In this document: positions 12,456 to 50,449 of the stretch, piece by piece | Numbering within the stretch: position 1 is the first letter of the stretch | Layout: each line of letters begins with the position of its first letter | Virus record (IMG/VR): IMGVR_UViG_3300013426_000014 | Location: 1 to 64,000 of that record | Length of the DNA: 64,000 bases | DNA from: a virus | Lineage: Duplodnaviria > Caudoviricetes | Strand: one strand, 5' to 3' | Notes under the pieces: model-generated | Databases searched by the model: none | Seen by the model: only the letters and a program-made list of their open reading frames with translations | What the model was told of the DNA's origin: nothing | Made by a program: the position numbers and the translations under genes

Positions 12456-12571
12456 AATTATTCAGACTCAATTTAATCTGAATATTATATTGGTCACAGA
12501 CGTTTATATTTTCGCCGTTTCGCCCCGTGATACGATAAATATCAGGTAAAGTATTAACGGCTTATCCTATA

Positions 12572-14164
12572 ATGAAAGACGTAACGCGTGACATATATTC
12601 AGACCCGTTCAAGTCGATCACCGAAGTGGCGGATCCGGGGCTGAACTCACTGACGGAATCGCTCGGCATCGACGACAGAAAAGAAACGGAAATCCTGAAC
12701 GAAGCGGGACAGTATTTCGGCGTCGTGCCGCATGACCTGATGCATATGAATCTCGACTTCGACAAGCTAAAGAAAATCGGTCTCGGTGGACTCGGCGCGC
12801 TGGCCGGCGCCGGAGTGTTGGCGGGCAAGGGGATGTCGAACCTGATAAAGCGGTTGCTCACCAAAGAGGGGGCGAAACGCGTATACAGACGGATCGAGGA
12901 GTTGAAGGCATATATATGCGACGGCGAGTACGCCGACAAGCTCCGTCTTACCATCACAATGCGCAATGGAAATCAAGTCAACACGATACGTTCATATGAT
13001 CAGATTGTCGACGCTTTCAAGAAAAACATACAGGACGATCTCGACCAGTACGCGGCGTCCGGCGTGACGAAACGCAAGATTAAAGAAAGTATCGACGAGG
13101 CAGATGAAGTGACGGTCCGCCGTGACGAATATAAGGGAAGCAACACACAGAGCAGACTCATCGATAGATCGACGATGATGTATCTTATCGGAAAGTACAG
13201 CAAGCTGATGCGTCTCGTCAACAAGGAGTTTCCGGATCTCCGCAACGGCGGTTACGGGTATTCCGGTGGCGGTTACGGGGAGGGTGACGACCTGTACGAC
13301 ATGATAAAGCGGACGTGCGAGAAAAACCTTTCACATTCCGACCGGTATATCGACAAGCTTATCGAGAAGTTCGAGAAGAAATTCACGATAAAGAAACTAT
13401 TCAACAAGGACAACCCCGGAAACGAGCGGGCGGTGGCGAAATGATCCGCCGCGCTGCATTCGGCGTGGGACGCGAAGAAGCAGGACATAATGGCAAGGTA
13501 TAACCAGATACCGCGCGACATATGCAGAAGCACTGAATTCCTTGCCATGTACAAGCTGCTCGTCAAGCTTTACCGGAACATGCCTGATTCGAGATACGAT
13601 GTCGACACTATAATGGCGGAGATAAAGAAAGCCGGGGCGGCAGCGCTGCAGTCGATGTTCAACGGGGACTGGTATACGGTAAACCCCGGAAACAACGCGG
13701 TGGTCATCGGGGTAGATAACACAATGGGTAACCAGACGCTTTACAACGCGTTCCTTAATGCGGTCGACGCGGGCGAGATAATAAACAAGTTCAACAAGTC
13801 ACACAAGACCGACTACAAATACGGTAATGAGAACGCGTATTATGTCGTCAGGATGGATTCAGGCAAGACGAAGCAGAAGCCGGCGCCGATGCATCTCGTC
13901 AGCCAGTCCAACCCGCATCTGTTCGCGAAAGAGCTCCCGCAATCGTTGATAAGCAACCCGGCGCAGGCAGACAAAGGATTCTTCAACGACAGGGTGAAGC
14001 TTTACTACACCGCGTCGATGGCGGGGCGGAACGGCGACAACCCGCAAGACATCAGGATAATGTTCGATCTGTCATGGGACGCGCCAATACAGAAGAAATA
14101 TGCGGATGTGTTCGGCAATCCGGGCGGGAACAACAACGGAAACAATGGCGGGCAAAACCCGTAA
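12572..14164 (+). CDS. Hypothetical late protein (530 aa, 1 TGA=Trp)
   Basis: Track ORFs 12572..13444 and 13490..14164 are in one frame, separated only by TGA 13442-13444 (AVAK*SAALHSAWD). ATAAATA at 12535-12541. Confidence 0.75.
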
Positions 14165-14185: not shown

Positions 14186-15229
14186 ATGAACAACACACAA
14201 AAAGAGATACAGCTGTACAACCAGACGGCGAACATGTATAAGCTTGTCAGCGATGCGATATACAGTATTGAGAACGGTGACGACTGCCTGTACAGTCCGG
14301 ATCAGCTTGATCTTTACATCGGGCGGCTGCAGGCGAATCTGAAAAAACTATGCGGCACGATGTTCTTCGATAATCCGAACGTCGCGAGGTGGATCGATGA
14401 CGCCGCGGCGTTCAAGGACGCGGTCGGAAGGATTCGCGGTTATGACGCGCTCGAGGCGGCGGCGCCGTGGATAACAAAGACTTACAACGCGGCGGTGTCG
14501 AAAAGCTCGTCACCGAATCTCAAGTCGAGACGGCTGACACCGGACGACACGAGACGGTTTATCGGCAGGATAACGTCAGGCGACTCGATACGGCGGTATA
14601 AAAACAAAATCAACGCGCTGGCAATGCGTTCCATGACGGACGCTATGCTCGTGAAACTCGTGAACTCGGTCTTGTTCTCGTCTAACTCGACGCCATTGTC
14701 GGAATCGCTCACATACGGCAACGACAGATTGTCACTGCATGAGGGATTCTTTAACCCATACGACATGGATGACGATGATGACAGAAAGAAAATAAGGATC
14801 GAACCGGCGGTGAAGAAACCGGGAATAGTAAAGAACGTCCGCATGTGGAAGTCGAACAGACGGGACAAAACTGTATACAAGAACGGCAGAATGTACGCCG
14901 GCCGGCTGTATTCGGCGGACGACATTGTTGACGAGTGCCCTGTTTATGAGCTCAGCACATCGGATCTGTATTCCCCACGTATACGGGACATCGCGATACT
15001 CATAGATCCGGAGACGAGACGTTACGGCGTGCCGATGGGCATGGCGAACTATTACCGGACATCAGACGAGACCGGGACAAAGCCGAATATTGATTACGTA
15101 TACAATCCAGACGAAGGCATCATCCGGATATACGCGACGAGAAAAATCCGGATCGGCGACGAGCTTGTGATGAAATCGGACATGCCAGAATACGAGAACG
15201 GAATGAAAGATTATCAATTTAGATATTAA
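14186..15229 (+). CDS. Protein with C-terminal degenerate SET-like domain
   Basis: GRMYAGRLYSADDIVDECPV...MGMANYYRTS...PNIDY...IRIYATRKIRIGDELV follows the SET pattern, with NHS replaced by RTS. Confidence 0.6.
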   Translation: MNNTQKEIQLYNQTANMYKLVSDAIYSIENGDDCLYSPDQLDLYIGRLQANLKKLCGTMFFDNPNVARWIDDAAAFKDAVGRIRGYDALEAAAPWITKTYNAAVSKSSSPNLKSRRLTPDDTRRFIGRITSGDSIRRYKNKINALAMRSMTDAMLVKLVNSVLFSSNSTPLSESLTYGNDRLSLHEGFFNPYDMDDDDDRKKIRIEPAVKKPGIVKNVRMWKSNRRDKTVYKNGRMYAGRLYSADDIVDECPVYELSTSDLYSPRIRDIAILIDPETRRYGVPMGMANYYRTSDETGTKPNIDYVYNPDEGIIRIYATRKIRIGDELVMKSDMPEYENGMKDYQFRY

Positions 15230-16137
15230 TGAGAACGAACAGAAAAACCCATACTATGTTGAATCCACGTGGCAAGAGCCTTTACGAAGGTTTCGATTTG
15301 TCCGGCGGAAACGAGACGGACTGAACTGACACGATGTCAGATGCAGACATCAACGCACAGATTGATTACATGCGTGGAATGTCGCTGTCATTACAAACAC
15401 AGATGAATACGACCGCCGATTCATACGCGGTGCCACCGAAGTTCAATGATGACGTGGTGAAAAATCTCGAAAGAATATATGATAACAGCAACAACAGTCC
15501 CGCGAGCAATTCATATTCATATGTGTTTGATCGGGACAATCTTATGGTATACAAGGCGATGCCCGGCATAATAATGGATCCGCAGACATTTATAATGGGC
15601 ACGCCGGAAGCTGATTTCAGCGGGATGATGCGGGAATCGAAAACTTGAAAAAAATACTTCGGCAAGATGAATGTCACTCTGGAGGACAGAGTCAAGTTCA
15701 TATCGGATTGCGTGATGTCGCTGCCACCGCAGCTCGCCGTCGCGAAGGAACACATACAGAGCGTCATGCCGGATGTCGATATCGACTGTGACGCCGATGA
15801 CCAAAATGACTTTGAATTCTCTCTCGCCGCCGACATATTTGCGATAGCATGGCAGTGGAAGAAAATACGCGGTATACATCCATGGACAGGATACACCGAA
15901 GTGTTTGCCCCCGCGGCAGACAGATGGTTTGGATTTTTTATCACGGATGCTGATGCGTTCGAGCCGGATGGACATTCTTCGCTGAGCGACATCGGCGTGT
16001 TCGGATCGATGAATCTGACGAACATGTTTGACCGAATCCCGTCAGAATTCGGAATGGAAAAAGATAATGGCAGATATAAACTATTTTACTCATTAAGACG
16101 TATGTCCGATTACCTAATAGAAAATCACGGACTGTAA
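15229..16137 (+). CDS. Acidic-cassette family protein (302 aa, 2 TGA=Trp)
   Basis: ATG overlaps the upstream TAA. SLYEGFDLSGGNETD*TDTMSDAD cassette. TGAs at 15322-15324 and 15646-15648 join the track ORFs in one frame. Confidence 0.8.
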
Positions 16138-22082: not shown

Positions 22083-23237
22083 TTATAACCGCTCAACAAT
22101 ATACATATATTCGTTAAGCTTTCCCGACTTGTTGAAATGTGATTTTCGCGTGTTTACCGGAAACTTGTCAAATTTTGAGAAAGAACCGGCGATTAAATAC
22201 TCATAGTCCTCCCTTATTATCACACCGAGCGTCCCCGCCGACGATTTTTTCCAATTGTCAAACACTTTCTTCATCAGTGTGTCATATTCGTTTCCTGTGA
22301 AACCGCCACATTCATATATCTCCGTGTTGCCGTACGGCGGGCACATGAAAACCGCATCGCAATCGGACGGTATCTCGAAACCCGCGGCGTCACGTTCATT
22401 GATATCACAGTCAAAATCAAGGTAATCACACATCCGTCGGACGTTCTCGACCGTATGGTGGCTCAGGTCGTTGTACACATAGCCGCATCCGGCGGCGGCG
22501 AATCCGATCAGATGGTGACCCCATCCGCCGAACGGGTCCGCCACCTTCTTCAAATGATATTTTTCCGCGAACCATTTTGTCCACAATGGCGAAAAATGTG
22601 AATATGACCGGTATATACCGGATTTCTTAAAACCTTGAAGCAGTATGCCATCTGTCAACGACTCCATCGGTAAATCCAAGTATTTCATCCTGTTTTCAAT
22701 CAACGTCCGGCGGATAACCGCATCTTCAGTGAATAACTGTCGCTCTTTCGCGTAAAATATCTCCTGTTGAAAAAACAGGACGATCTTGTTTCTGTTCGGC
22801 ATGGCGGACAAATCACCGGGCGTCGTCTTGAACATATTATATTCATCACGCATTTCCTTATACGTGATTTCCAAATGAAGTCCGTCTTTTATCTGATGTT
22901 CAAACACACGTTCTATCTTCTTTTTGACTGGTTCTTTCTTTTCGCGTTCCGCCGAACCGGCCAGATGTCTCGCACACGACAAGCAGCAGCACCGATCATA
23001 TCTGAACCTGTACTGTTTTGTCGGTTTACCGCACACCGGACAAATCCCCTCATCCGGTTTTTTAATATATTGATTGTAATATTCTTCATACAGAGAGTCA
23101 TCATCACCGAATCCATGTGATTTCTTGAGATGAACCGATAACGCGCGAAGACTTTTGAACATCCTGCCGCATATCTCACATTTCAGTGATCCTGTATGTA
23201 ATGAGAAATTTCCTGTCTTATTATATGTCCTTGCCAT
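22083..23237 (-). CDS. C2H2 zinc finger / Zn ribbon fused to an amino-type DNA methyltransferase domain
   Basis: CEICGRMFKSLRALSVHLKKSH, CPVCGK...CCLSC, SAM motif VADPFGGWG, catalytic-like MCPPY. Confidence 0.7.
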   Translation of the reverse strand: MARTYNKTGNFSLHTGSLKCEICGRMFKSLRALSVHLKKSHGFGDDDSLYEEYYNQYIKKPDEGICPVCGKPTKQYRFRYDRCCCLSCARHLAGSAEREKKEPVKKKIERVFEHQIKDGLHLEITYKEMRDEYNMFKTTPGDLSAMPNRNKIVLFFQQEIFYAKERQLFTEDAVIRRTLIENRMKYLDLPMESLTDGILLQGFKKSGIYRSYSHFSPLWTKWFAEKYHLKKVADPFGGWGHHLIGFAAAGCGYVYNDLSHHTVENVRRMCDYLDFDCDINERDAAGFEIPSDCDAVFMCPPYGNTEIYECGGFTGNEYDTLMKKVFDNWKKSSAGTLGVIIREDYEYLIAGSFSKFDKFPVNTRKSHFNKSGKLNEYMYIVERL

Positions 23238-24282
23238 TGTCTGTGCCGATTATATGATGAACACCTTTTGAATCACACTTATAGTTCTCTTGTATATACG
23301 CGGGAATTTTATTCAAATCTATGTTATTGAAAATTTCCAGATAATTAAGATTATTGTCCGCGGCAGTTTTTCTTTTAGCCGGATCGCTTTCAGTCCAGAC
23401 TTTTAATGCGGTTATATAAAATTTACTAGACAATGACTTGTCTTTCCATATATTAAATTTTTCAGTATCGTTCTGAACATCATATGGATGTTTTCCGTGT
23501 GTCCACATACCGTTTAGTTCTATGTAAAGATCCAATGACGGTATATAGAAATCACAGGAATACGGGTAATCGGATGATCTGTATTGTCGAATAACGTCCG
23601 GATATTGGATTAACAACAATTTGAATAATTGTTCTTCTTTGCTTGATACGTTAAACGATTTATTTTTCTTTTTTGTATTATAAGCTTTTTTCAAATACAT
23701 TGATGATTTTGCATAAGATTCGACGCCATATCGTTCTTTACATGTTAGATGCTGTTTGTTTTTGATATTCTTATTTTGTAAAGGGTATGTAACGCCATAT
23801 TTTATATTATTAATATATTTTATACGTTCTTTTATTATCTCAGATGCGAACGCGTTTTCCACACCATATCTTTCAATATTGGTTTTTTTAATCTTCTTTT
23901 GTATATCCAACGATTTCATTGGATTGTCGACACCATATTTTTTAATTGACGTGTCCTTTCTTTTTTGTATGACATTTTTATCGTTCGCCCCGCATTTCAT
24001 AGAGCAATATTTCATAAACGGCCATCCGTTACGGTTTCTATGAAATCTATGAGTTGCTTCAAAACGAACTTTGCCGCCACATATAGGACAGACAGGACGA
24101 GTCTCTATATCAAGTAATATTCGATAAAGCGTTTCACGCAAAGATGATGAATCATTATATCGGTTAATCAAATAATCATTGATATCCGGATGAAGTTCGA
24201 GTCACGCCGGTTTCATATAATTAGGATTTAACCATTGATGATCATTAAAAAATAAATTTTTGATATATTCATCATTTAACAT
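23221..24282 (-). CDS. Free-standing homing-endonuclease-like protein (Zn ribbon, YGV repeats, PD-(D/E)xK/Vsr-like domain, 1 TGA=Trp)
   Basis: CPICGG...YCSMKC, repeats KYGVDNPMKS/RYGVENAFAS/KYGVTYPLQN/RYGVESYAKS, YSCDFYIPSLDLYIELNG. ATG 24282 is reached through one TGA. Very AT-rich. Confidence 0.8.
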
Positions 24283-24422: not shown

Positions 24423-26180
24423 CTAAATCAAACCACCATTCGTTTTAACGAAGTATGTGAGATACTGAGTCTCTGGATAGAAACCAGTCTCGATAAGCGC
24501 ATACCTGCTCTTAATCAAGATCTTAGGCGCCGCTGTGCCCTCTGATATCATCCTGACACTTTCAGCCATGATGTATGGGCAGAAGTTGAGACCCGGCTCA
24601 TCTTTGTCACCCTTACGGCCTACGAGAACACGCGTGTCATCGTATTTCATAAACGGATCTGTGTATATTGTCATTCCCGCCATGGTACCGACAGGGTAAA
24701 GGCTTCCGTTCGTCTGGTTGAACGTGTTCGCGATCGGACTGAACGAATACTGAGCGCCGAGCTGAAGGGCGGTAGCGAGCTTGTAGTTTGTGACCACGAA
24801 GTTCGCGGCGCCGCGACGGCCTCTGTTCATGATGACGTTGCCGGCAGCGAGAGCGCGGGCAGAGATTCTCTTAAGGATGGTATCCTGGTTCTCGAAGTTC
24901 GAGCTTCCGCCATACGTCTCGAAATCAGGGATGCTCATGCTCTCGTTCACAACCTTGCCATCCTCGAGATAAGCGTAAGGAAGGGTCTTCTGGTCCTTCT
25001 CCGGAGTGAGGTTGAGGTTGAGGTTGATGCCCTCAGAACGATTCGCCTGGATGTGGTTCTTCCAACCGAGCGCGAAGAGCCGTGAAAGGATCTCCTTGTT
25101 GATTGACTGAGAAAGCTCGTTGATCGCGGCGTTCTCGACCATCTTAAGAACATCAACACCCCACTGCTTCTGAAGGTCCTGAACCTGCTCCTGAGTTACA
25201 GCGACAGCAACTGAACGGGTCTTAACAGACACGAACTTCGTGAAGAGCTGCAGGCTCATCTGGCGGGCATACTGCTGCTCACCGGTCGCACGGTCCATGG
25301 CGTCATAGATCTTTGTGCCATCCATGAACGTGCCTGACCACGGGTCGTTGTCATTCTTGCCTGAACCAGTGAAGCCCTGAATCTGATCCTCGAGCGCGCT
25401 GATGAGACGCGGTGCTTTGAGCGTAACGCCCTCGGCGGTAACGGAACCGTTCGCGAAGATCTCGCCAAGCGACTTCTGTGTCGGGTTGGAAAGAACACGG
25501 AACATCGGATCAGCGGTAAGCCTTGAAAGACCGATGTACTGAACGTTTACGCCGTCAATCGTGATCTCGTCCGCCTTCGCGAGGTTCTCAATCGCCTCGT
25601 CCTTAAGTTCGGCAGTAGAAGCGTCAATCTTGCAGCGGAACGCGTGCGGAAGATCGAATGACTTATACGCGGTGTTCTTTCCCTTGTTCTCAGGATAAGC
25701 GGCGTTATACTGCGGGTTGGCGGTCTCTACATCGTAACCAGGGGTCGCGCCGTAAGGAGCCTTTGATCCGCTGTAGACGTAATCCATGAAAGGAAGAACG
25801 CCGGTAGGGCCGGAGAACGGAGTCGTGTTTACAAGGTCAAAGCCGACAGTGCGGGCAGCGACCTGAAGCGCCATCGGGAGGAAGTTGTTCCACTTATCGC
25901 CGGAGCCGAAGCTCTTCGCGCTTGTCTGATCCGCGCCAGTCGCGCCGGCGAACTGAGCCGGAACGGCGTTGCCGATACCATTTGTATTGTTGAGCGTCTG
26001 GAACGGGAAACTTACCCCGCCGACCGCCTCCTCGTTGAGGGCCATCGAGTGGTTGTGCGCGTACTGGCACATCCAGGCCATCTTCTCGCTGCCTTCATTG
26101 ACAGCGCCCTTCGTGATCTTCGAGATCATAGGGGACCAAGACTCTACGATCTTAGCCACGTTGACGTTATTTTTAGCCAT
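24423..26180 (-). CDS. Major capsid protein (T4 gp23-like)
   Basis: 585 aa. GFDLVNTTPFSGPTG, EQVQDLQ, INKEIL, RRGAANFVV, IYTDPF, FCPY, KSRYAL. 6 Trp codons, all TGG. Confidence 0.95.
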   Translation of the reverse strand: MAKNNVNVAKIVESWSPMISKITKGAVNEGSEKMAWMCQYAHNHSMALNEEAVGGVSFPFQTLNNTNGIGNAVPAQFAGATGADQTSAKSFGSGDKWNNFLPMALQVAARTVGFDLVNTTPFSGPTGVLPFMDYVYSGSKAPYGATPGYDVETANPQYNAAYPENKGKNTAYKSFDLPHAFRCKIDASTAELKDEAIENLAKADEITIDGVNVQYIGLSRLTADPMFRVLSNPTQKSLGEIFANGSVTAEGVTLKAPRLISALEDQIQGFTGSGKNDNDPWSGTFMDGTKIYDAMDRATGEQQYARQMSLQLFTKFVSVKTRSVAVAVTQEQVQDLQKQWGVDVLKMVENAAINELSQSINKEILSRLFALGWKNHIQANRSEGINLNLNLTPEKDQKTLPYAYLEDGKVVNESMSIPDFETYGGSSNFENQDTILKRISARALAAGNVIMNRGRRGAANFVVTNYKLATALQLGAQYSFSPIANTFNQTNGSLYPVGTMAGMTIYTDPFMKYDDTRVLVGRKGDKDEPGLNFCPYIMAESVRMISEGTAAPKILIKSRYALIETGFYPETQYLTYFVKTNGGLI

Positions 26181-26244: not shown

Positions 26245-26251
26245 TATTTAT
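26245..26251 (-). promoter_or_regulatory. ATAAATA late-promoter-like box upstream of major capsid gene
   Basis: Recurrent heptamer, followed by a GCGGT/ACCGC hairpin in the leader. Confidence 0.6.
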
Positions 26252-26276: not shown

Positions 26277-28049
26277 TTATCATCTTCTGTTGTAACCGTC
26301 CGCGGCCTCACCGACGAGCTTTATATAATCGCTCGAGTAAGGCAGTCCCGCATCTGCCGAAGAATTGTCGGTGATCTTAGGGAGAGAATTGACGTACGCC
26401 TCATTCATCAGCCTTGCCTCCTCCGCCCGCATCAGGCCGGAGTTCTCCCAAAAGTTGTCGATGTCGCGTTGCGACTCGAACACGCAATACTTCGCGCAAA
26501 TTTGCAGGTTCTTTTTCTGGAGATCGCTCGCGGACTCATACAGCTTCCTGTAATTGTCCGGCGCGTTCTTCAGCCACACCGGGGCGTCGTCGACCGTCTC
26601 GGTCAACGCGCCTTCCCACAACGCGTTCACCGCGTCCGGCGTCCATACCTGGTTCTCGTTCAACCATCTCGACACTTTGTCTTGCTGTGCCCTGTCAAGC
26701 TTCGCGAATTTACTGAACGAAGACTCGTTCATCAGCCCGGCATGCGGGTATTTCGCGACGAGCGACTCGTTTTTGGCCTTTTTCTTTTTTAGACCGTCGA
26801 TCAGCTCGTCGAGCTTGTTTCCGAAATCCTTCCTCGATTTCTCGATTCCGTCTTTCTTATCCTTTATCTCGTTTATATCGGTCACGGCTTTCTTGCAGCC
26901 GCGGTCTTTCTTGTCGCACTCAGACGCGTCCGGGGCATCGCCGCACTCGTCGACGTCGTCCTTTTTGTCATCCTTGCCGTCATTGTCGTTGTCATCGTCG
27001 TCCGTCTTGCTGTCTTGTTCATCATCCGATCCGGCCGAATCATCATCCTTGTACACAGGCTCAACGTCCTTCACTATGTCATCGTCTCCGTCATTATCGT
27101 CGAAATCGGCGCGGACGTCAATGATCTTAATATCGTCAGACAATTCAGCTGAATCGTCTTTCTTTTCGACGGACTGCCCGGCATCACCGCCTTGCCCGTC
27201 GTCCGCCTTGTCATCCTCGTTCGTCTTCGACGACACGATCTTCGACGGGTCGAACTGGTTCGTCGATCCTTTCACGTCAAGCGGCTTGTTCAATGTATCA
27301 TCCGGATTAACGGACTCTGTTATGGGTCTGGTCATATCTTCGATGTTATTTTCATTAAGTTTCGCCGCGGCGATCGCCTTCGCTTCCGGCCGTATGTCAG
27401 GATTCGCCTTTGAGTTGAGTATCGAATAGCTCTCGTCCAGGCCGAGCTGGCCGGCGACTGACATCGACTCCTCCGCGACGGCGGCGCGACAGAAATCTCT
27501 CGCCGCGTCCGAATACGCCGGAGCGTCCGCGGACTCGTTCACCCTATGCAGGACTGCATCCTCGAAGCCCGGTTTTATCACGACATCATACGTGAATATT
27601 TGCTGTATATCAACGATGTTATCCTTACCGACAGTGCCACTGGCGCGGGACGAAATGCACAACGGCATCCCCTCATCGACAAGTCCTTTAAGCAGCTTTC
27701 CGTTAGGCGTGTCGAGCAGTTCAATTTTACCCATGACCTGATTCGTCTCCGGCTGGTACCATAGATCAAGGATGCGGTGTGACGCCTCCTTAATGTCAGT
27801 CTCGAACCTGTCCGCCGGATGACCCGGCTCGCCGAGCATCCATCCCTTTTCTGGATGGCGAAGATCGTCACGGAGATACTCAAGGTGTTTAAGATACTCC
27901 TCCTTTGGGTATATGCGCTGGTTCCTGTTTATCTTGTCCAGCGTCGCGACCGGCCCCTCGAGGATATATCTGCCGGTGTTTATTTTTTCTGACTCGTTGA
28001 GGCGGAGCTGATCCGCGTTCTTTGAGCATATCATCAGACTTTTCATCAT
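26277..28049 (-). CDS. Prohead protease (gp21-like) with long acidic scaffold-like C-terminal extension
   Basis: ILEG...NRNQRIYP...LGEPGHP...SHRI...LLDTPNGK...ISSRASG...TYDVV..PGF..A. Ends TGA-TAA (terminal Trp or double stop). ATAAATA at 28074-28080. Confidence 0.92.
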
Positions 28050-28087
28050 CTGCCGTTGTTTTTTATGCTAATGTATTTATTAGCAGG

Positions 28088-29209
28088 TTATACGAGCGGG
28101 GTGAGCCGTTTTCACCGCCCGTCCGTCATCCGTTCGAGAATCTTCGGGTCCATCACATAATACGTCCCGCCGACGCAAACGACGAACGTAGTCCACGGCG
28201 TGTCGGTATGCAGGCTGTTGTTGTCGTTGACCGTAAACATGCCGCCGAGGTCGGACTTCTCCTCTCACCCGTCGATCAGGTGGTCCATCGCGGCGCGGAC
28301 GGAAGGCTTGTAAAACTGCCTGTATTTCCGGAGTGCTGACCATGTCATATACCGAATATAATTCGGGGCACCGTTCCAGTTCAAGTAATTGTTGTAATTC
28401 TGAATAAACACGCCATCATATATGTCAAGCTCATCCGACGAAGGATTAGACAGCATGCCGTAATTTACCATTATCCTGACCGTCGACGGCGCATCCGGAT
28501 CAACGTCGCGGAGTCTGATGTTCTGCATGATATCGTCGAAGAACACAGTGAACGGAACGGTGTCGCTGTATCGCTTATATTTGGCCGGACCCAGCCGGAA
28601 TATGAAATCGTCTATTCCCCTGATGGTAGGGAATCCATTCAGACTGTCAATTTTAAGTTTCTTGTCCGACGTTCACGATCCGATCTCCAGCTGCCGGACA
28701 GAATCAAGCTCACTGAAACACGGCGTCAGATCCGACCATTTGAAAATTCTCGTATCAACGCGGATGGAAAGTTCCCCGTCCTTGTAACCACTGCAGTCGA
28801 AGCAGTCGAGTTTCAGACCCGGATACATACCGGTCACAGATCCTTCCGGCATCGCGTACAAGCTGCCATTTACACCGAATTTAACAGACTTGAACAAGTT
28901 CATCGTCACCTGCCCCATGCCGATCTCGTCTGCAAAATCGCTGTCCGGTATGACAATGCTCATGTGATATCCGTCCGGCTCCGCCGTCACACGGACCGTA
29001 TCGTCGATGAAATTCCGCGTGGCTTCAGATGTGGCGTCTCAGTCTATCGCGAAAATGTTATATGCCGCCCATTTCTTTATATCGGCGATCCGCTCCATCA
29101 TTGCATTGACGTCCGCGTCGCTGAACGTTTCAGTGTAGTCTGTATCCGATATGTCTGACAGGTCAAAACCCTCGGACAATTTATATATGCGGACTTTATT
29201 GCGTGTCAT
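28088..29209 (-). CDS. Acidic-cassette / LRR-like family protein (373 aa, 4 TGA=Trp)
   Basis: KLSEGFDLSDISDTDYTETFSDAD cassette, IDSLNGFP repeat remnant, one frame from ATG 29209 to TAA 28088. Confidence 0.75.
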
Positions 29210-29224
29210 ACGATAATTCTTATT

Positions 29225-31192
29225 TTAACCCCTGAACTCAACCTCTCTTTTCGGTATATCAATGTCGCGTATAATCTCATCAAGTTCAGCGTCAGTGATG
29301 TCATGATTGATTTTCCATGACTTTTTCGAAAACACTAAATGATTAAATTTCCGATTCAATCCATCTTGACACAACGGCTGTATCTTTCTATAAAATACAA
29401 TCGGCACATCTATATAACATAAATTCACCTCACCTGCAAATAATGGCAAACCGGATCCTTTCATTTTAACATTTTCTACTCCATAATATGTAAAGACACA
29501 AAATTCAGAACCGACTGTCTCGGGACATCCGGTAAAATCGGTCGGATACTTTGATTGACGTCTTTTGAATATTATTTCGAAATCACCGGTAATTTCAGAC
29601 GGACATCCTTCTAAAGAACGTATATCAGACTTATCATTATCTACCTTCACATTACCAACAACTTTATACGGCATCCCTATAAAATTGCCGTTTTCATTTG
29701 GTTCTGCATTCAATTCGAATCTATCCGTATTTGCAGATACCGATATATATTCTCTCGCTGTTATAATCGAATCCGTTTTTGGCGTAATTCAAATTCGTAT
29801 ATTCGATATTCCAAGTTCATGTCTATCTCCGCCGAATAAAATACAAGGATCGATATACAATTCATTGTTGTTTAACGTTGTCATATGAACAAGCGCGTTA
29901 GAGGAAAAATGTATAATTATACAACTTTCGGTTTTTTCAACGTCAAATTCACCGTATAGCTCTTTTTTTTCGGTGATTCGTTTGATTTTCCTATACATTT
30001 TTTCATTGTCAATAACCATAAATCCGCATCGTCGACTTGTACCAGCGAATGCCTGTTTAATGATATGCTTTTCCTTCTCCATCTGATCAATATCACTGAA
30101 CGTGTCGGTGTAGTCAACATCTGACATATTCGAGAAGTCAAAATTCTCATTCACTTTCTTCCTCGTCGGAGTCGCCGGGTTTTTCTTCTGTTGATTCAAA
30201 CCTCATTTTCTTCCGTTGACGGTCGACAGTCTCGATATCACTGTCGATTTCTTAAGGAAATTGTTGTAACAATTAAAATCACCACCGATATATTTCGGCA
30301 TACCGACAAGTGACGTCAGGCAATTGTTCGACACGTCACAGTTGCCGTTGATCCTTTCCGGTGATCCAGACAAAGATTCAAGCATGTTGTCATCGACAAT
30401 AAACCTATTAATTTTTGGGTTTCCCGACAGGTTGATCCCGTCGAGATTCCGGAGTTTATTACTGCCGAAATCGATGTCGACGCCTCTGACTGAATCCGAT
30501 TTAAGCACGGGCATTCCCTTTATAGACGACAATCCGCAGTTCGTAAACGAGATGTCACTGCATATCTTTGTCGGCAGACCGGTCAGATCAAGACCAGACG
30601 GAAGGTTATTCCAACCATTGACGACTGTCTGGTTGTCATTGAACCAATTTGAATTACGCAATCCAATATTGACACTCAACCTCCCGTTGATTGTAACCGG
30701 GAACCCGCAGAATGTCATCGGCGGGCACGCATACCAACTATAATTCGTGACGATGAAATCACCGTCGCATATGTCGAACCGTATATAATCTGGAAAATCG
30801 CCGCCGGTTCACTTGTTCGACCCTGAACCTTTCGGATCAGTCGCGTCGTCGACGATCTGAACCCGCCTGCCGTTACGGAATGATTCAGATACGCCAAAAT
30901 AAAATCGCGCCGTATTATTGACTGGTGTATGTTCATCAAACAATATGCTAATCATATGTGACGACGGATCAATGACATAACGGCCAGAATAAGTAGTCAT
31001 ACGATCAGCATTATAATCGGAGACTTTGTCAAACTTGATATGCTTATCACACCATTCCTTTATCAATATTATCGTGTCGTCCATGTCGCTGAACGTGTTT
31101 GTATAGTCGGTGTCAGACATGTCAGTGAAGTCAAAATCTTCGGTTATCGATCAAGAATCCAGACACTGGTTATGATTCAATATATTATCCAT
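29225..31192 (-). CDS. Acidic-cassette / LRR-like family protein with two tandem units (655 aa, 4 TGA=Trp)
   Basis: Four track ORFs share one frame. Cassettes SITEDFDFTDMSDTDYTNTFSDMD and KVNENFDFSNMSDVDYTDTFSDID. Repeats LSSIKGMP, LESLSGSP, LTSLVGMP, IRSLEGCP. Confidence 0.7.
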
Positions 31193-32264
31193 TTTTCTTT
31201 GTTATTCATTTATACGCGGGATCGCCGCCGTGATTATCGATATAAAGTTTCGCCTCGCCGTCCAGCAGCACTTTCGGACCAAGAATTGACTCGAGCTTTT
31301 TCTTATCGGTGTTATCGCGAGAAACCATTATGTCGTTCCGGAACCTATTGAAAATATTCTTCCTGAGTTTCCTGCCGATGTACAAAAAGCTTGAAACCGT
31401 CACGATATTATTCCGCGACACAGGCGTTTTATTCCGAAGAATCGACGATCCTCTTATTATAATAGTCGCTGCATCTATATCCGCGTCTATATCACACAGT
31501 CTATACAAATCATCTTCTGCGAAAGGATTAATCTCAATCGTTTTAACCCGTCCCGGCGCGCCTTTAAGCGAGGATAACATAACGTCGTCCAATTGAAATA
31601 CGCTGCATTCTTTCGGTGATCCGAAAAGGTTGTCCATCATAATCGGACCAGCAGAGACGCCATCCAGTTCACAGTTGCACAGTCGGATTTCGCCACAGAT
31701 TTTCGGCGATCCGATAAGGCTGAACACACCGGAATTCCTGTCATCAACAGAAATGCAGACACACATACCGCAACTGTCCGTTCTGTATGTTCTGCCTATT
31801 CTATTGTCAAATAACAATGGGCATCCGATCATGCCGGTAGAAGGATTCGTATACACATTAAAATATTGACAATTATTATTATACACAAACTTGTATTTTA
31901 ATCCGTCAGGCGATATACCACTACATATGCGGCGAACCTCCCCATCGGACAAATCAAGCAGCAGTTTGAATGCGTCGTCATATGATTCATCCACGCCTAT
32001 GCGGATATCGGTGTAATCGTCGATATCATATCACAAGACGTCTTTGACCGCCTGATCCCGCAGTCTCATCATACCCGCCGGATAATTCAATGTTGAATCG
32101 GTCATATTTGAAAATACCGCATCCAACGGTATCACGTACATGTGGTTTATTATCGCCTTCACTGCAGATTCGTACATGGATATGTAGTCAATGTCAGAGA
32201 ATACGTCCGTGTAGTCGACGTCCGACATGTCAGAGAAGTCGAATCCCTCGTTTATATATGTCAT
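31185..32264 (-). CDS. Acidic-cassette / LRR-like family protein (2 TGA=Trp, alternative start 32279)
   Basis: YINEGFDFSDMSDVDYTDVFSDID cassette, FSLIGSP/DNLFGSP/LSSLKGAP repeats. The TAA overlaps the start of the next gene. ATAAATA at 32288-32294. Confidence 0.75.
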
Positions 32265-32348
32265 ATCGGTATAATACATATCTTTTGTATTTATTGTCAC
32301 TGAGCAAGAATACCGATAAATATGTCAGACAGAAATTTTTGTATAAGC

Positions 32349-32981
32349 ATGAATCAGAATATATTATACGTGGCGGCGGATTTCTCGATAGCAAAACCGG
32401 CAATCAGTACATTATATGGTGACGAACTGAAATTCGCGGTGTTTCCGCAAAAGATAGATTCATTCACAGAGGACCGTCTCAGGACGGTTGGTGTCGAGGT
32501 GACGAACAGGAACCTCGATCCGGTCGACACGAAAGATCCGGGACATATCATGGAGCTGACGAAACGTTACACGAACGCGGCGGATATGATAACAGCATAT
32601 CTGATGTCATTCGACGCGGACAAAATCATATTCTCATCAGAAGGACTTTCGTACGCGTCGAAAGGAAGGATGACACTCGAGCTCGCCGGTGCCAAATACG
32701 TGCTGTTGTCCGCGTTATGGTCCGCCGGCGTGACCGACATAATAACGTACAGTCCGACCACAATAAAGTCGACCGCCGGATGCGCCGGGAAGGGGAAGGG
32801 AAAGGACGACATGATAGCGGCGTTCAAGGCACAGGATCCGAAGAATGAATTCATGCGCAGGATGAAAGATAACGACACGTTCTTCCGCAAGAAGACCGCG
32901 TATATACACACAATAGACGACATCGTCGACTCATACTGATGCATGCGCACGATGGCTTCCAAACTTAACTTCGAGATCTAA
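32349..32981 (+). CDS. RuvC-like Holliday junction resolvase (1 TGA=Trp)
   Basis: AADFSIAKPA, SEGLSY, SPTTIK, GKGKDDM, DDIVDSY*C. Read-through ends at a TAA overlapping the next ATG (TAATG). ATAAATA at 32316-32322. Confidence 0.8.
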
Positions 32982-35900
32982 TGAATAGGACGGCCGGGCC
33001 GGGCGCGCGCCTGGTGGAAAAGATAAAGGAGACGAAATCCGGATATATCGTAAACCTCACGCCGGGCGGATCAAAAACGGAGGATTCAAAAGAGAAAAAA
33101 GGCGGCGATCTCGTCAAGGCAATGAAAGACAAGAAGAAATGCCTGGCGGATAACTGGCTTTCCGATTTCTGTGTGACACAATGGACGAGTATCAGGACAC
33201 GGCTTATCGACTCGATCAACAAGATCACTGTCAAGGCGAAGGAGGTGATCGACGATCTCATGTTCACGTTCACCGGTGACAATTTCATCAACCTTGTTGT
33301 CATAAGCCTGCTGACGACATGCGAGCAGCTTGTCAACGGGATAATCGTCCCGTTCGACCCAGTGTTCGTCGAGATATCATACAAATACAATGAGGTGCTC
33401 CGGAAATGAAGGGAATACAAGAACCTCAGAACAAACCCGGAGGATCCGGACGAGGATGAAAGGAAGACAAGGCTGGCCGAGATGACGGAGTATCTCGTCA
33501 GGCAGGGTGAAGGCGTGTGCTCCGCTATACTGGTGTATATGCTGATCGAACCTGTGTCGGAACTGCTCGACGTCATAAAAGAGATATTTAAGGCGGGACA
33601 GCATGAGTGGGAAAATGTCATCGGCAAGTTCCGCGACCTGTACGCGCTTATCAAAACAGTGTGCGACAGCATGCCCGGCAACAAATTCGCGAAATCACTG
33701 CTGGGAATACTGGCGATAATCATACCAGCGGCGGCGGCGCTGGCGTGCGGGATAGCGTGTGCGCGGGAATCGGACGACAAATTCAGAGCAAAGGCGAGGG
33801 AGTCACTGTCAGAGAACATGAAGGCGAACGGTCTGAAGGAAGACGCGGCTGTATCAGACCAGGCGGCAGACGCGGCAGAACGGTATAACCGCCTGTCGAT
33901 ACTGATAGAGGCGGCGCTGAAGAATCTTGACGGCGTGTCACTGTCATACAAGAAAGACGGTTCCGAATCAAAATCCGCGGATGACACGGTGTCGACAGAG
34001 ACGATATCGGTCTGCTACACGCCGAATGAAAGAATCGATTATGACACATCGGACAAGAAACGTTACGTGCTCGAGATCGGAAAAGACATCATCGCGAAAG
34101 GAGGAAGGCTGACGCCGCAACGGGGAGCGAAGATAAAACAGAACCAGAAAATCGGCGAATGCGAAGGAATCCCTATATTGTCGACCATATCCGGCCGCGT
34201 GACAAAACGGTATTATAACTACATCGTTATCGAGGACGACGCGGATGAAAACGAAATAATGAGCGAGATAAATTCGGCGCGGAACACCGCCGATATGACG
34301 GACAAGTTCTCGCCACTGATCGACCGGTTCAAAAAAATCGCGTACGCGGAGTCATATATCAAGGACCTCGCGGTATACTGCAGATTTCCGTCAATCGCCC
34401 TGCACAGCAAGAAAAAAGGAACATACCGTCTGACGCTGCTCGAGATATTGCTCGGCAAAAAACTCGACTCAAAAGACAGGTTCAAGAAAGATTACAACAA
34501 GGCGCTCGACAAGAAGATGACGTCACATCAGAAAAGCGTCAAACGGAAATGCGGTAAGTCGAAGATAAAGACGGCGGCGAACAACCAGAATATGGACGGC
34601 GTAACGAAGGACATAATGTCAGAGAAGGATGCCGGATACAGAATGGTTGTTGACATGTACAGGAACTGGATCCGGAGATCATCGAAATGATGCGCGGACA
34701 ACGCCGACACATACATGCTGCTGTCCGACTATATCGAGTTCGCCGCTGACAAATCGGTCATGTATGAGGAAGACAACCCGTTCGCGAAACGGCTGTTCGA
34801 CGCGCTCACGTCATTCGTCGACAAGCGGTCGCGCATAGAAAAGGTCGACAAGCAAAATTTGATCAAAAACTTTAACAAAAAATGCTCCGCCCTGCTGGGA
34901 AACAGGATGGGCAAAGGCATGAACTACTGGAACTATTTCTCGTCCAGGTTTCGGGCAAACTATTACGTGCAAGGAAGTTCCGGCGTTATCGGCGTATCGG
35001 ATGCGGCCGCGGCGGGAAACGAATCCGATTTCGATACACTGTACAGAAAGATGTACGACCACATAATGAACCTGCTGCAGTGCGGGACCGTCAAACGCGG
35101 GACGGAGGAGGTCAGCACGGAAGTAGACAGTATCGACGCATTCGTCAATCAGACTGATCAGAATGAGGAGATGTCAGACGCGGACAAAAAAATCATAGAG
35201 AAGCAGAACGACGCGAAGGCGATCGTCCGGTATTACATGCTCGCCCGGGGGGTCAAGGCGAGTAACAAGAAATCATCGTCGAAACAAACGCTGGCGGCGC
35301 AGACGCGGTCAGAGGAGCGGATATTAGACAAGATATTCAACGACGCGGTAAAATGGAGAGAGAAAGACGCCGGCCTGCTCGACATCGACAAGCTGAAGAA
35401 CGAGTTCAAGAAATTCATGTCGGTCGACTGCCCGTACAGGGGGACAATATACCTGAACAACATACCACACACGCATTACGTGTTTTCGACATCGATCGAG
35501 ACCGCCGGCGGCAGCAGTTTCATGACGGATCTTGAGGCGAACGGGCAATGCTCCGCGAAAACCGGGACAGACAACAGATCGATGCATTACTGGCTGCTGT
35601 ACTGCTCGATGGCGACGCTTGTCAACTGCATGATCCCGATCTATTGGGGAACCGGACTAAACATAATGGGCGTGCCGATACCGCTGCCGGTGATATACCT
35701 GCCAATATACTACCTGTCTGGATCATGCGGCGTGCTGTTCGGTCTCGGCATATGCGGCATCGCGGTATGGCCGATGATTGTGCTCATCAACAATACCGCA
35801 TATGACGCGACGATGCTGATACCGATAAACCTTGTCATCGATCTCGTCAGAAAGAAGCTCAACGATCTCGCAGACAAGTCGGTCGGCTCGCTGAAGTCAT

Positions 35901-37093
35901 TCGCGATGCCGTTCATAAAGGAATGCGATGATGAGATCGAGGAAATCGAGAAGCAGATCAAGGTCGTCGACACGGCGATAACAAAATATAAGCTGAACGC
36001 CGCCGGCGTCGACAACATGGCGGTCAGCGGCGCTGCAGTCGACCCAGCAGAAGGGTACGACACCGGTGGCAGTAGACGGAGCCGATACGGCGGGGCGGCG
36101 TCGACAGCCGGACTCGAGACCGGAACAGTCGACATGACGTATGACGAGGCGTATATAGAAGAAATCAGGAAAAAGGGTCAGATGACTGCGGAAGAGTGGA
36201 AGAAAGCAGAGGAAGAAACGAGAAAGGCATACAGGCAGATGACGGAACGCCAGAAAAAAACAGAACAATACGCGAAAGACACGGCCGGATCAGACAGTAA
36301 TGGATCATCGTCCACCGGATCAGACAAATCATATTCATCATCAATTGAATACAACCCGACTGGAACTGGATTTAACAATGTGATTGTCTGTCTCGACGCC
36401 GCGCACAACAAATACAGGTCAGGCAAGCGCACGCCGTGACTATGCACAAAAACACTGCCGACCGGTTACAAGACGAACGAGAGCTGGATGGACCTGTATG
36501 AATATAAGTGATCAAGGGAGGTCATACCTTACATAAAATCCGGGCTCGAACGTTACGGGGTAGAGGTGTACGAGGTGACGCCACAGGATACGGAAGGCGA
36601 CGCTTCACAGGACAATCTGACAAGAAGGAAGAATCGGATCGCGGCGAAAGTCACGCAATCGGGGAAACACGCGGTATACCTGTCGATACACGGAAACGCC
36701 GCCGGGTCGGGGACGAAATGGTACGGCGCGAACGGCTGGGCGATATACACGACAAAGGACCGGTCGAAAGACGCGAAAGGACAGGCAGAAGGGTCGAATA
36801 AACAGAATTCAGTGACGCTCGCGCAGACCCTGTTTGACGAGGCGGCGGAAATCCTGCCGCAATACGGGAAGACGATAAACCGGATAGGGGAACTCCGGAC
36901 AGCAAAGCACTGAGAGACAAACGACTTCGGCGCGGTGAACAACACATTCATACCGACAGTACTGACAGAAAACCTGTTTTACACCAATCCGGACGACTGC
37001 AAGTTCATGTCATCGGACACCGGCAAACGGGTCATCGCACAGATACATGTCAACGGTGTGCTGAAATTCATAAAGAAGATGAAATGGGTATAA
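32981..37093 (+). CDS. 1370-aa multi-domain protein with hydrophobic segments and C-terminal N-acetylmuramoyl-L-alanine amidase (Amidase_3) domain (5 TGA=Trp)
   Basis: One frame joined at TGA 33407, 34688, 36437, 36509 and 36911. VCLDAAH...GKRTP*...YEYK*SRE...LSIHGNA...VLTENLFYTN. Confidence 0.85.
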
Positions 37094-47165: not shown

Positions 47166-47978
47166 TTATATTGATCTTCTTAGTTTCTTCGCCTTATCTG
47201 ATATATATTTTTTACGTAATGATTTCGACAGAAACAGTTTACCGTCAATTCCATTCTCAGGACGTTCGGACATGTTCCGACCAAGATCATACTTGTTAAG
47301 CGCCCTGTTGCCGGCGAGGTTGATCCTCTGAGCAGGATATTGCTGTCTACTCACATATCCGTAACTATTTGATGACACGGTGAAATTGTTGACCTTACTG
47401 AAGTCGACCGACGGCATGTACCTTTGCGCGTCTGACATGTAATTGTCAGCATTGTCGGATTTCAGGAATTTTCACGTCATGTCTGTCGCCGCCGTGATTT
47501 TGTCCGGGCCGGAAAAATTATTAAATGAAAGCGATATGGCGGGCCAACCACATACCGGCTTCATCACCGGCATATCGATCACAGGCAGATTATCCAGACT
47601 CGTTATAAGATTGTAATTCGCGTTGAACAACCCACCCCGTATGACCTTCGGAAAATTCTTCATCGATGTCAGTCCATTTCATGACACATCGACATTGACA
47701 TCGACGACATTCAACGGGAACGGGAGCTCTGTCTGACCCGGCCGGAGGATGATCCGAATCGCAGGCCGGGTCAGTACATCATCCACATCATCCGAATATA
47801 GCAATGATATCCCGTCTTTATCGATTGACACCAATTTCTCATCTATTCCCTGCTCTTTGCATCACATGATCATCATCTGCTCTGTCGCGGCATCATCCGC
47901 GTCTGACATGGTGTCGGTCCAATCGACATCGTCCATATCAGACAGATTGAAATCTTCGTATAACAAATTGATCTGCAT
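47166..47978 (-). CDS. Acidic-cassette / LRR-like family protein (270 aa, 3 TGA=Trp)
   Basis: LLYEDFNLSDMDDVDWTDTMSDAD cassette, LTSMKNFP and ITSLDNLP repeats. ATAAATA at 48000-48006. Confidence 0.78.
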
Positions 47979-48074
47979 AAAAATAAATCTAATATATGTT
48001 ATTTATTATAAATCCGAAAATACGTTTTCACACGTATTTCCGGATACATTAACAAATTATTAACAAACTGCAAG

Positions 48075-49646
<1,572 letters not shown>

Positions 49647-49657
49647 ACCGTATTGAT

Positions 49658-50449
49658 TTACTTTAATATGCCTTTCGCCCGCGCCGCCGCTACGGCAGCG
49701 TTCCACGCGTCTTTATACCCGTCAATGAAATCCTGCGATATGTTCGGCGGGAGCTGAGGCGGCTGCGGCGGAGTGACGGGCGGATTCTTCTTCAGTTCTT
49801 CGTATATATCCTCATACGCCATATTCGCGTATTTCTCGTCATATAGGAACTGCATCCCGTCTGGGCCCGGCTCGCTGAACACGCCTTTGAAATCTTTATT
49901 GAGATGCTCTATCGCGTAATTGATCTCGTAATCGCCGGCTATGTTCGACAATTCATGCTCCATACCGTACGACTCGCCGCGCGGTATATGCTGGTATATG
50001 ATATGGAACGCCTCATGCGCGAACACGCCGACGAATTTCGTGTCAGTCAACGAGTTCATGAATGCGGGATTGATAAAAAAGCGCACGCCGTCGACACCTG
50101 CTGTCTCTATGCCGAACGTCGGCACCAACGTGAGCATGTTAAGCACCGCGTATATGCCGGCGGTCGACTGGTTCTTCGACATGATCTGCTTCGTCAGATT
50201 GATCCGGCGGCGGAGATACCTGAAATCATAATCCTTGCCGTCCGGCCCGACAACGATATCGTACTGCATCAGATTACGGGCCGGGACCATTGAGTTCGGA
50301 CCGAGTTTCACCTTTTTCGTGTCAGGATCGCCCAGCGCATCCTGCTCGACGCCATCGAACGCACCTGCGAAATCGATGTCGCCGATCTCGACACCCGTGC
50401 CGAACTGCTGAGCCTCGTTTATCTTTTTTCTTATATGAGCTACCGCCAT
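49658..50449 (-). CDS. Putative metallopeptidase (DUF2201 N-terminal type)
   Basis: ETAGVDG..FFINPAF, HEAFH (HExxH), NIAGDYEIN, EDIYEEL. ATAAATA at 50478-50484. Confidence 0.85.
   Translation of the reverse strand: MAVAHIRKKINEAQQFGTGVEIGDIDFAGAFDGVEQDALGDPDTKKVKLGPNSMVPARNLMQYDIVVGPDGKDYDFRYLRRRINLTKQIMSKNQSTAGIYAVLNMLTLVPTFGIETAGVDGVRFFINPAFMNSLTDTKFVGVFAHEAFHIIYQHIPRGESYGMEHELSNIAGDYEINYAIEHLNKDFKGVFSEPGPDGMQFLYDEKYANMAYEDIYEELKKNPPVTPPQPPQLPPNISQDFIDGYKDAWNAAVAAARAKGILK

Follow-up and report, generated by a model that had tools for sequence, protein, structure and literature searches.

Cassette genes in the 28088–32264 region

The region 28088–32264 lies in a window of 64,000 nucleotides, the first 64 kb of the 269,322-bp record of a Lak-related jumbo phage (IMG/VR record IMGVR_UViG_3300013426_000014). 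This is a gut phage whose closest named relatives are the Prevotella Lak megaphages, with a capsid identity of 48–49%. The region encodes proteins that share a short, strongly acidic element, here called the cassette, in front of bodies that differ widely. Read with translation table 4, it contains three tightly packed genes on the minus strand, for proteins of 359, 655 and 373 amino acids (aa); read with table 11, it falls into pieces of 60–260 aa. Two more genes with a cassette are scattered through the window. The five genes, some with bodies of the leucine-rich repeat (LRR) type, are:

31185–32264, minus strand: cassette gene 1, 359 aa from the ATG at 32264 (alternative ATG at 32279); weak LRR-like body (LRR profile E 3.4e-4)
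29225–31192, minus strand: two-unit polyprotein, 655 aa; unit A a clear LRR, unit B starting from an internal cassette
28088–29209, minus strand: cassette gene 3, 373 aa; body without an LRR match
47166–47978, minus strand: scattered cassette gene, 270 aa; LRR-like body; flanked by genes for an HNH endonuclease and a DNA ligase
15229–16137, plus strand: scattered cassette gene, 302 aa; body not LRR

The cassettes themselves, each with the three residues before it, are:

32187–32249, minus strand: copy 1, after I-N-E; leader of just 6 aa (MTYINE)
31079–31141, minus strand: copy 2, N-terminal, after I-T-E
30086–30148, minus strand: copy 3, at an internal junction made up of the basic linker KKNPATPTRKK, V-N-E and the cassette
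29111–29173, minus strand: copy 4, after L-S-E
about 47892–47957, minus strand: cassette of the 47978 gene, after L-Y-E
about 15286–15351, plus strand: cassette of the 15229 gene, after L-Y-E; conserved Trp spelled TGA

The pattern E-[GDN]-F-D-[FL]-[ST]-[DN]-[MI]-S-D-x-D-Y-T-[DEN]-[TV]-F-S-D-x-D matches at 32249–32187, 31141–31079, 30148–30086 and 29173–29111. The copies in 47166–47978 (minus strand) and 15229–16137 (plus strand) are somewhat more diverged. An earlier reading of the window, made from the letters alone and called here the sequence-only reading, had placed six copies of the cassette, and all six were found at those places under table 4.

This phage reads TGA as tryptophan. A conserved Tyr/Trp position of the cassette is spelled TGA in three copies, which fits this assignment. 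The sequence-only reading was also right that all five window genes contain TGA (2, 4, 4, 3 and 2 in-frame codons in the genes starting at 32264, 31192, 29209, 47978 and 15229) and that standard gene calling shatters them – table 11 splits all five. Public databases contain only table-11-type pieces of these genes. Because the genes contain TGA, the family is invisible to standard annotation and is present in databases as fragments only. At the end of the first cassette gene (31185–31210, minus strand), which overlaps the ATG of the next gene, a TGA stands six codons ahead of the TAA stop. The last six residues of this protein are thus code-dependent, since table 11 would stop at ...DPAYK, as in the database fragments.

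Copies of the cassette and selection on the peptide

The sequence-only reading had proposed scanning the table-4 translation with a profile of the cassette. A hidden Markov model made from the copies and run on the six-frame translation of the whole genome gave 25 matches with E <= 3.6e-6, while the next match had an E of 0.5. A separate profile search of the same genome returned the same 25 copies. The recurrence of the cassette is far beyond chance. The conserved element has 21–27 aa. An EF-hand- or dockerin-like calcium loop was considered for its second half, but by eye the pattern fails at the aromatic fourth position.

Codon usage was compared among 21 of the 25 copies, which share one register (four shifted or truncated copies were excluded). 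Mean pairwise identity in the cassette core was 0.60 for amino acids and 0.41 for third codon positions, and identical residues were encoded by the same codon in 46% of 2727 comparisons. The peptide has been kept by selection and not by recent gene conversion. These values indicate that selection acts on the cassette peptide, not on the DNA, and that synonymous sites are near saturation.

A putative cut motif before the cassette

The motif [LIV]-x-E stands immediately before 24 of the 25 copies in the genome. Its middle residue is free (N in 10 copies, T in 4, Y in 4, S in 3; also R, D and Q), and the residue that follows is G, D, E, N or K. In 50 database relatives, many of them close orthologs, [LIVM]-x-E precedes 50 of 52 cassettes, and the two without it belong to orthologs of the single exception in this genome. 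That lone copy, at 263430–263552 of the genome (minus strand), has T-S-P in place of the motif; the motif is also missing from its orthologs in two other assemblies, and only this genome has an L-N-E 10 residues further upstream. The leaders ahead of the motif are not conserved and range from 3 to about 20 aa, the shortest being MINE, MLNE and MNE. In the passages cited here, the T4 head protease gp21 is described as cutting after L/I-X-E (PMC9026906).

If the motif is a cut site, the conserved part of the cassette lies after the cut and the tag would be retained. The copies were searched for a further conserved cut site behind the cassette, at which the tag would be lost, and none was found. 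The common D-x-x-A-E was considered as such a site and rejected, as its P3 residue is not hydrophobic.

The bodies behind the cassette hold fewer sites of this type than expected. This test and the LRR test below covered 24 of the 25 bodies, one remnant of 9 residues being excluded. The 24 tagged bodies have 29 [LI]xE against 39.2 expected by shuffling, and [LI]xD is not depleted. In the other 199 proteins of the genome, [LI]xE occurs at 1.17 times expectation; relative to that baseline the deficit in the bodies has a Poisson P of 0.005. The sites that do occur are often near the ends – 7 of the 29 fall in the 20 residues that follow the cassette and about 9 in the last 50 residues – and these could reflect further trimming.

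Polyproteins and exchange of units

The second protein of the region, of 655 aa, has a second cassette at residues 349–375, behind the basic linker and V-N-E. Internal copies of the cassette have neither a start codon nor a stop under table 4. A TGA at codon 330, 19 codons upstream of the internal cassette, raised the alternative that the cassette begins a separate gene behind a leaky TGA, with a GTG start at the Val of V-N-E; this is not favoured. At the place of this TGA one relative has Cys and another has Trp in its table-11 call (P0014 and P0013), and both read straight through the junction, so the fusion is real. The leaky-TGA explanation was rejected as the main reading on account of these residues, of the other four internal junctions, which lack such a TGA pattern, and of the conservation of the junction with different partners.

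Elsewhere in the genome there are one three-unit protein and two further two-unit proteins with the same kind of junction. Unit A is joined at the same junction to three partners in three lineages: the window's own second unit, an ortholog of the 29209 gene (P0013), and a module resembling unit A (P0029). In P0013 the switch in homology falls within the cassette, so units appear to have been lost and gained by recombination at the cassette. If fused and separate forms are evolutionarily interchangeable, the simplest explanation is that the chains are cut at their junctions.

Bodies behind the cassette

With the cassette removed, BLAST connects 14 of the 25 bodies, via the repeat region alone. 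The repeat has the consensus F-x-C-x-x-N-x-L-T-S-L-x-G-x-P-x-x-V-G-G; it is 21–22 residues long, occurs in tandem, and has the L-x-x-L-x-x-N-x-L spacing of the LRR type. When P0013 was searched against 1.84 billion representative proteins, 3178 of them matched at E <= 0.001, and among the 150 matches listed nearly all outside the close relatives run through the repeat.

An LRR profile was made from an alignment (A3) of 22 repeat proteins. Against the PDB, it matched InlJ (3bz5, E 3.8e-17) and SspH2 (E 1.8e-10), and also SspH1, IpaH and YopM. Unit A of the window matched the profile with an hhalign probability of 99.0%, which makes its link to solved LRR structures an indirect one. The profile matched 16 of the 24 bodies in the genome and four of the six units in the window, all but the units at 29185 and 15274; the bodies are mostly LRR-like, as had been proposed. 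The other eight of the 24 bodies have no LRR, and several of them have no detectable likeness to any other body. The tag is therefore portable across unrelated scaffolds. The sequence-only reading had described a conserved tag on variable scaffolds, and this description holds; as far as can be judged at the sequence level, the cassette is not an integral part of one shared fold. The bodies are 200–500 aa long with 2–5 repeats per unit, and their isoelectric points (pI) range from 4.1 to 10.0.

The five window proteins have no significant match in Pfam or PHROGs, and ten further tagged proteins of the genome (15 in total) have no Pfam domain. None of the five reaches a Pfam LRR threshold; LRR_4 is reached by two of nine members of the wider family. 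A sequence search of the PDB with P0013 and P0062 gave no match at E <= 1. A PDB profile search with orthologs of the 15229 gene gave matches at chance level only (best Cullin-5, E 0.06), and neither the 29209 protein nor the 15229 protein has a match in Pfam or the PDB.

Head genes and the promoter-like motif

The three cassette genes of the region are arranged head to tail. They are directly upstream of the genes for the head protease and the capsid protein, as the sequence-only reading had noted. The head genes, an ATPase gene and the copies of the motif ATAAATA that precede these units are:

26277–28049, minus strand: head maturation protease, T4 gp21 family (Peptidase_S77 43.4 bits, cut-off 27; phrog_207 E 6e-37); domain at residues 1–190
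residues 191–590 of the 26277–28049 product, minus strand: protease tail, 400 aa, extremely acidic, with long D runs
24423–26180, minus strand: major capsid protein, T4 gp23 family (Pfam Gp23 128.7 bits)
52818–54680, minus strand: T4 gp20-type portal (Portal_T4 178.5 bits)
50585–52540: MoxR-like AAA+ gene
32288–32294, minus strand: ATAAATA heading the three-gene cassette unit
28074–28080, minus strand: ATAAATA ahead of the protease gene
26245–26251, minus strand: ATAAATA ahead of the capsid gene
48000–48006, minus strand: ATAAATA ahead of the 47978 gene
12535–12541, plus strand: ATAAATA ahead of the unit 12572–14164, 14186–15229, 15229–16137

The acidic tail of the protease looks like a scaffold fused to the protease, which would take the place of a stand-alone gp22-type gene between those for protease and capsid. 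This tail, scaffold-like and thus an expected substrate of the protease, contains 15 [LIVM]xE against 5.0 expected, a number reached in none of 2000 shuffles, whereas [LIVM]xD shows no enrichment (9 against 11.3 expected). In the capsid protein, L-N-E occurs at residues 48–50, the expected place of maturation, before the region that can be aligned to mature T4 gp23. Lak-A1, Lak-B1 and Lak-C1 have the same L-N-E there, while a relative with 30% identity has I-H-E.

On both strands, ATAAATA occurs 78 times against 36.8 expected; the maximum in 20 Markov-1 simulations was 56. The motif resembles the T4 late promoter, TATAAATA. The sequence-only reading had placed the cassette genes in units led by ATAAATA. 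This is true of transcription units (motifs at 32294, 48006 and 12535) but seldom of individual genes – of 15 crudely called cassette genes in the whole genome, three have the motif within 100 nt of their own start.

Several neighbouring genes are of other types. The capsid gene is directly followed by homing/HNH endonuclease-like genes at 22083–24282 (minus strand), namely a DUF7487/phrog_3339 gene and one for a C2H2 zinc-finger protein, and another homing/HNH endonuclease-like gene at 48075–49706 (minus strand) adjoins the 47978 cassette gene. Predicted mobile endonucleases are interspersed through the head region. The gene at 32981–37093 (plus strand), which diverges in transcription from the cassette unit, encodes a 1370-aa protein with five TGA codons, hydrophobic segments and a C-terminal Amidase_3 domain (N-acetylmuramoyl-L-alanine amidase, E 5e-15); it may be a giant virion-associated lysin or an ejection protein. 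An open reading frame at 1–4410 (plus strand) extends beyond the start of the window and encodes at least 1469 aa, in an Ala/Gly-rich product with repeats and hydrophobic stretches that may be tape-measure-like or an internal virion protein. The first 2 kb of the window are 71% guanine plus cytosine, against about 50% elsewhere.

Distribution of the family

A word-based profile search of 5.8 billion proteins found 50 cassette proteins, without names or Pfam domains and all from metagenome assemblies, whose contigs reach about 269 kb. The cassette is absent from all three whole Lak genomes searched, and the same search finds 25 copies in the genome studied here. It is likewise absent from both IMG/VR records found via the capsid protein, one of them just 11% complete. 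A further 44 pattern matches in IMG/VR were followed up with tblastn, which confirmed none of them. Upstream of the capsid gene of Lak-B1 there is neither the protease nor the tagged family. As far as these searches reach, the family seems to belong to one narrow clade of TGA-recoded Lak relatives. Subscription journals lay outside the literature search, in which no published description was found. Together with the lack of a Pfam or PHROG family and of any name in the 50 relatives, this agrees with the suggestion of the sequence-only reading that the family may be undescribed.

Contigs from four runs of one study, which may be where the window comes from, have the same gene order as the window, and in three of the four runs a single contig covers the whole stretch. 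Contigs of all four runs have an in-frame insertion of 9 bases at 30489, within the LRR region of unit A. They differ from the window by some 60–70 single-base changes over 6.2 kb, mostly transitions.

A proposed role in head loading

The cassette may be a head-loading address combined with a cut site for the head protease, marking about 25 late proteins as prohead cargo of the T4 type; the probability of this reading is put at roughly one half. Capsid loading has several independent, though indirect, supports: the cut motif, the adjoining S77 protease, the junctions, the bias in motif numbers and the shared ATAAATA. The number of copies, the T4-type head genes, the selection on the peptide and the precedent of the T4 internal proteins also speak for it. 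Three observations do not depend on the cassette: L-N-E in the capsid protein, the enrichment of the motif in the protease tail and its depletion in the bodies. The exchange of partners at the junction would be expected if cutting gave the same products from fused and separate forms. The sequence-only reading had suggested an addressing system, for example for capsid loading. The tag is portable and the peptide is under selection, while the addressing itself is something we infer.

The proposed mechanism would have the following steps. The cassette genes would be transcribed together with the head genes, as suggested by the shared ATAAATA and their position in the operon. The acidic, aromatic peptide would bind to the prohead core; the simplest candidates for its partner there are the protease-scaffold protein and the capsid shell, on its inner face. 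The gp21-family protease would then cut after the Glu of [LIV]-x-E and remove leaders of 3 to about 20 residues, and the same cut would separate the units of the two- and three-unit polyproteins, a step suggested by the motif, the junctions and the motif statistics. If the cut falls there, the tag would be retained and form the new N-terminus of the mature protein. The bodies, mostly of LRR type, might then stay in the head, enter the host with the DNA and bind host proteins, for example defence proteins; this last step is speculative.

A stronger form of this proposal is more tentative and less likely than not. In it, the cassette would be a new class of capsid-loading signal, one that is not removed, and the phage would carry a library of about 25 interchangeable binders of LRR type, loaded into the head and delivered with the DNA as inhibitors or decoys of host defence proteins, with units shuffled between phages by recombination within the cassette.

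Several observations weigh against head loading. Two of the six window copies are among genes for DNA metabolism and homing endonucleases. One copy and its orthologs lack [LIV]xE; further, because the copies are homologous, the presence of the motif in 24 of 25 is one conserved feature, not 24 independent events, and [LIV]xE may just as well belong to a binding peptide. The conserved part of the cassette follows the putative cut and the leaders can be as short as 3–4 residues, so that the logic of a removed tag, as in T4, does not apply. The bodies are only modestly depleted in [LI]xE (z about −1.9 relative to plain shuffles), and with pI values from 4.1 to 10.0 the bodies are unlike the small basic proteins IPI–III of T4. 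Finally, three Lak phages with the same type of head (0 of 3) have no cassette.

Among other explanations, the one that survives best, though unlikely, is that the cassette is merely a conserved N-terminal element of one paralog family, needed for folding, oligomerisation or metal binding, with [LIV]xE there by coincidence. As the copies of the cassette are homologous, conservation of the motif could reflect any structural need of the element, and D-x-D-x-T-D-x-F-S-D-x-D, its second half, bears a loose resemblance to 12-residue calcium-binding loops. However, eight of the 24 bodies lack an LRR and several show no detectable likeness to any other, hence the cassette is not part of one shared fold. 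The internal copies follow low-complexity linkers, relatives recombine units at the cassette, and a free middle residue, as in [LIV]xE, is what a protease site would show.

Quite unlikely is a role as a docking peptide that anchors interchangeable LRR modules to a common external site of the virion (the surface of the capsid, the neck or the tail) without cutting, in the manner of the N-terminal anchors of tail spikes and fibres. In its favour, LRR domains serve for binding, receptor-binding proteins usually combine a conserved N-terminus with variable bodies, the family has many members and evolves fast, and its genes look late. But polyproteins with basic linkers and [LIV]xE at the junctions are unexpected for fibre adaptors, the window genes are near protease and capsid genes or DNA-metabolism genes and not near recognised tail genes, and the depletion of [LI]xE in the bodies would be left unexplained.

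Least likely are intracellular adaptors that are not part of the virion, in which the common peptide docks onto a shared machine (a protease of phage or host, an AAA+ ATPase or a similar hub) and the LRR picks the target: a short N-terminal motif before a variable LRR does resemble the F-box-LRR architecture of eukaryotes, acidic-aromatic peptides are common as hub-binding motifs and the window holds the MoxR-like AAA+ gene at 50585–52540, but no partner was identified, the Cullin-5 match of a non-LRR body (E 0.06), the only hint from the PDB, is no better than chance, and the [LIV]xE rule, the polyproteins and the place directly upstream of the head protease would go unexplained.

If head loading is correct, the packing of protein cargo known from T4 also occurs in uncultured relatives of the gut megaphages, on a larger scale and with greater modularity, and the cargo is dominated by protein-binding LRR modules. 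To our knowledge, no cultured phage packages LRR modules. The cassette would also be a portable and testable tag for loading foreign proteins into large capsids, and the family would supply about 25 candidate host-interaction proteins in a group of phages whose biology is little known.

Comparison with known systems

The bodies are related in type to the bacterial LRR class of internalin J, IpaH-SspH and YopM, in that their repeat belongs to the 3178-protein family whose profile matches these proteins. Unlike that class, they have no NEL ligase, secretion signal or cell-wall anchor, they have only 2–5 repeats per unit, and their acidic N-terminal cassette was found only in this phage clade.

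Polyvalent or MuF-fused effectors are a second point of comparison. In the source cited, they are host-directed modules joined in one polypeptide near head genes and predicted to be packed in the head and injected (Iyer et al. 2017, cited in PMC9503650). The cassette proteins are like them in having several modules in one polypeptide and in being encoded near head genes. In that account the polyvalent proteins combine a structural anchor such as MuF with enzymatic domains; here, there is no MuF or other Pfam domain in the 15 tagged proteins, and the units, which are LRRs of the binder type, carry a tag and a cut motif each.

In the phiKZ-like giant phages, the P3 residue of the protease motif is S, A or G. 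In the cassette proteins P3 is L, I or V in 24 of the 25 copies, unlike the small residue of the phiKZ-type motif. The passages cited describe paralogous head-internal or ejection proteins in these phages (gp53 and gp54 of SPN3US, and others) that are cut by a diverged homologue of gp21 (PMC10052503, PMC9026906). Going by these descriptions, the two systems share the setting of a giant phage, a gp21-related protease, paralogous proteins inside the head (proposed for the cassette proteins), and a cut, putative here, after the Glu of a three-residue motif. They differ in that the phiKZ-type propeptides described are mostly long (111–254 aa) and are removed, whereas the leaders here are short. 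A short portable tag, LRR bodies and polyproteins are not reported for phiKZ-type phages in the cited passages of these two papers (PMC10052503, PMC9026906).

The closest known system is that of the T4 internal proteins IPI, IPII, IPIII and Alt. No relationship to these four was found, either through a PHROG for the five window proteins or through a Pfam domain for the 15 tagged proteins. The passages cited describe the T4 proteins as a highly diverse set in which the capsid targeting sequence is the only common part (PMC3012670), and this sequence as a 10-residue propeptide removed by gp21 (PMC9026906). Against that description, the element here is longer (21–27 aa), acidic, and placed after the putative cut and not before it, with leaders down to 3–4 aa. 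The bodies are 200–500 aa, mostly LRR, with pI 4–10, while those of T4 are small and basic; and there are about 25 units here, some of them in two- or three-unit polyproteins. As for likenesses, this phage has head genes of the gp20, gp21 and gp23 families and, as in the T4 system described in those passages, diverse proteins with one short N-terminal signal tied to L/I-x-E, from genes that are partly scattered and partly beside the head genes.

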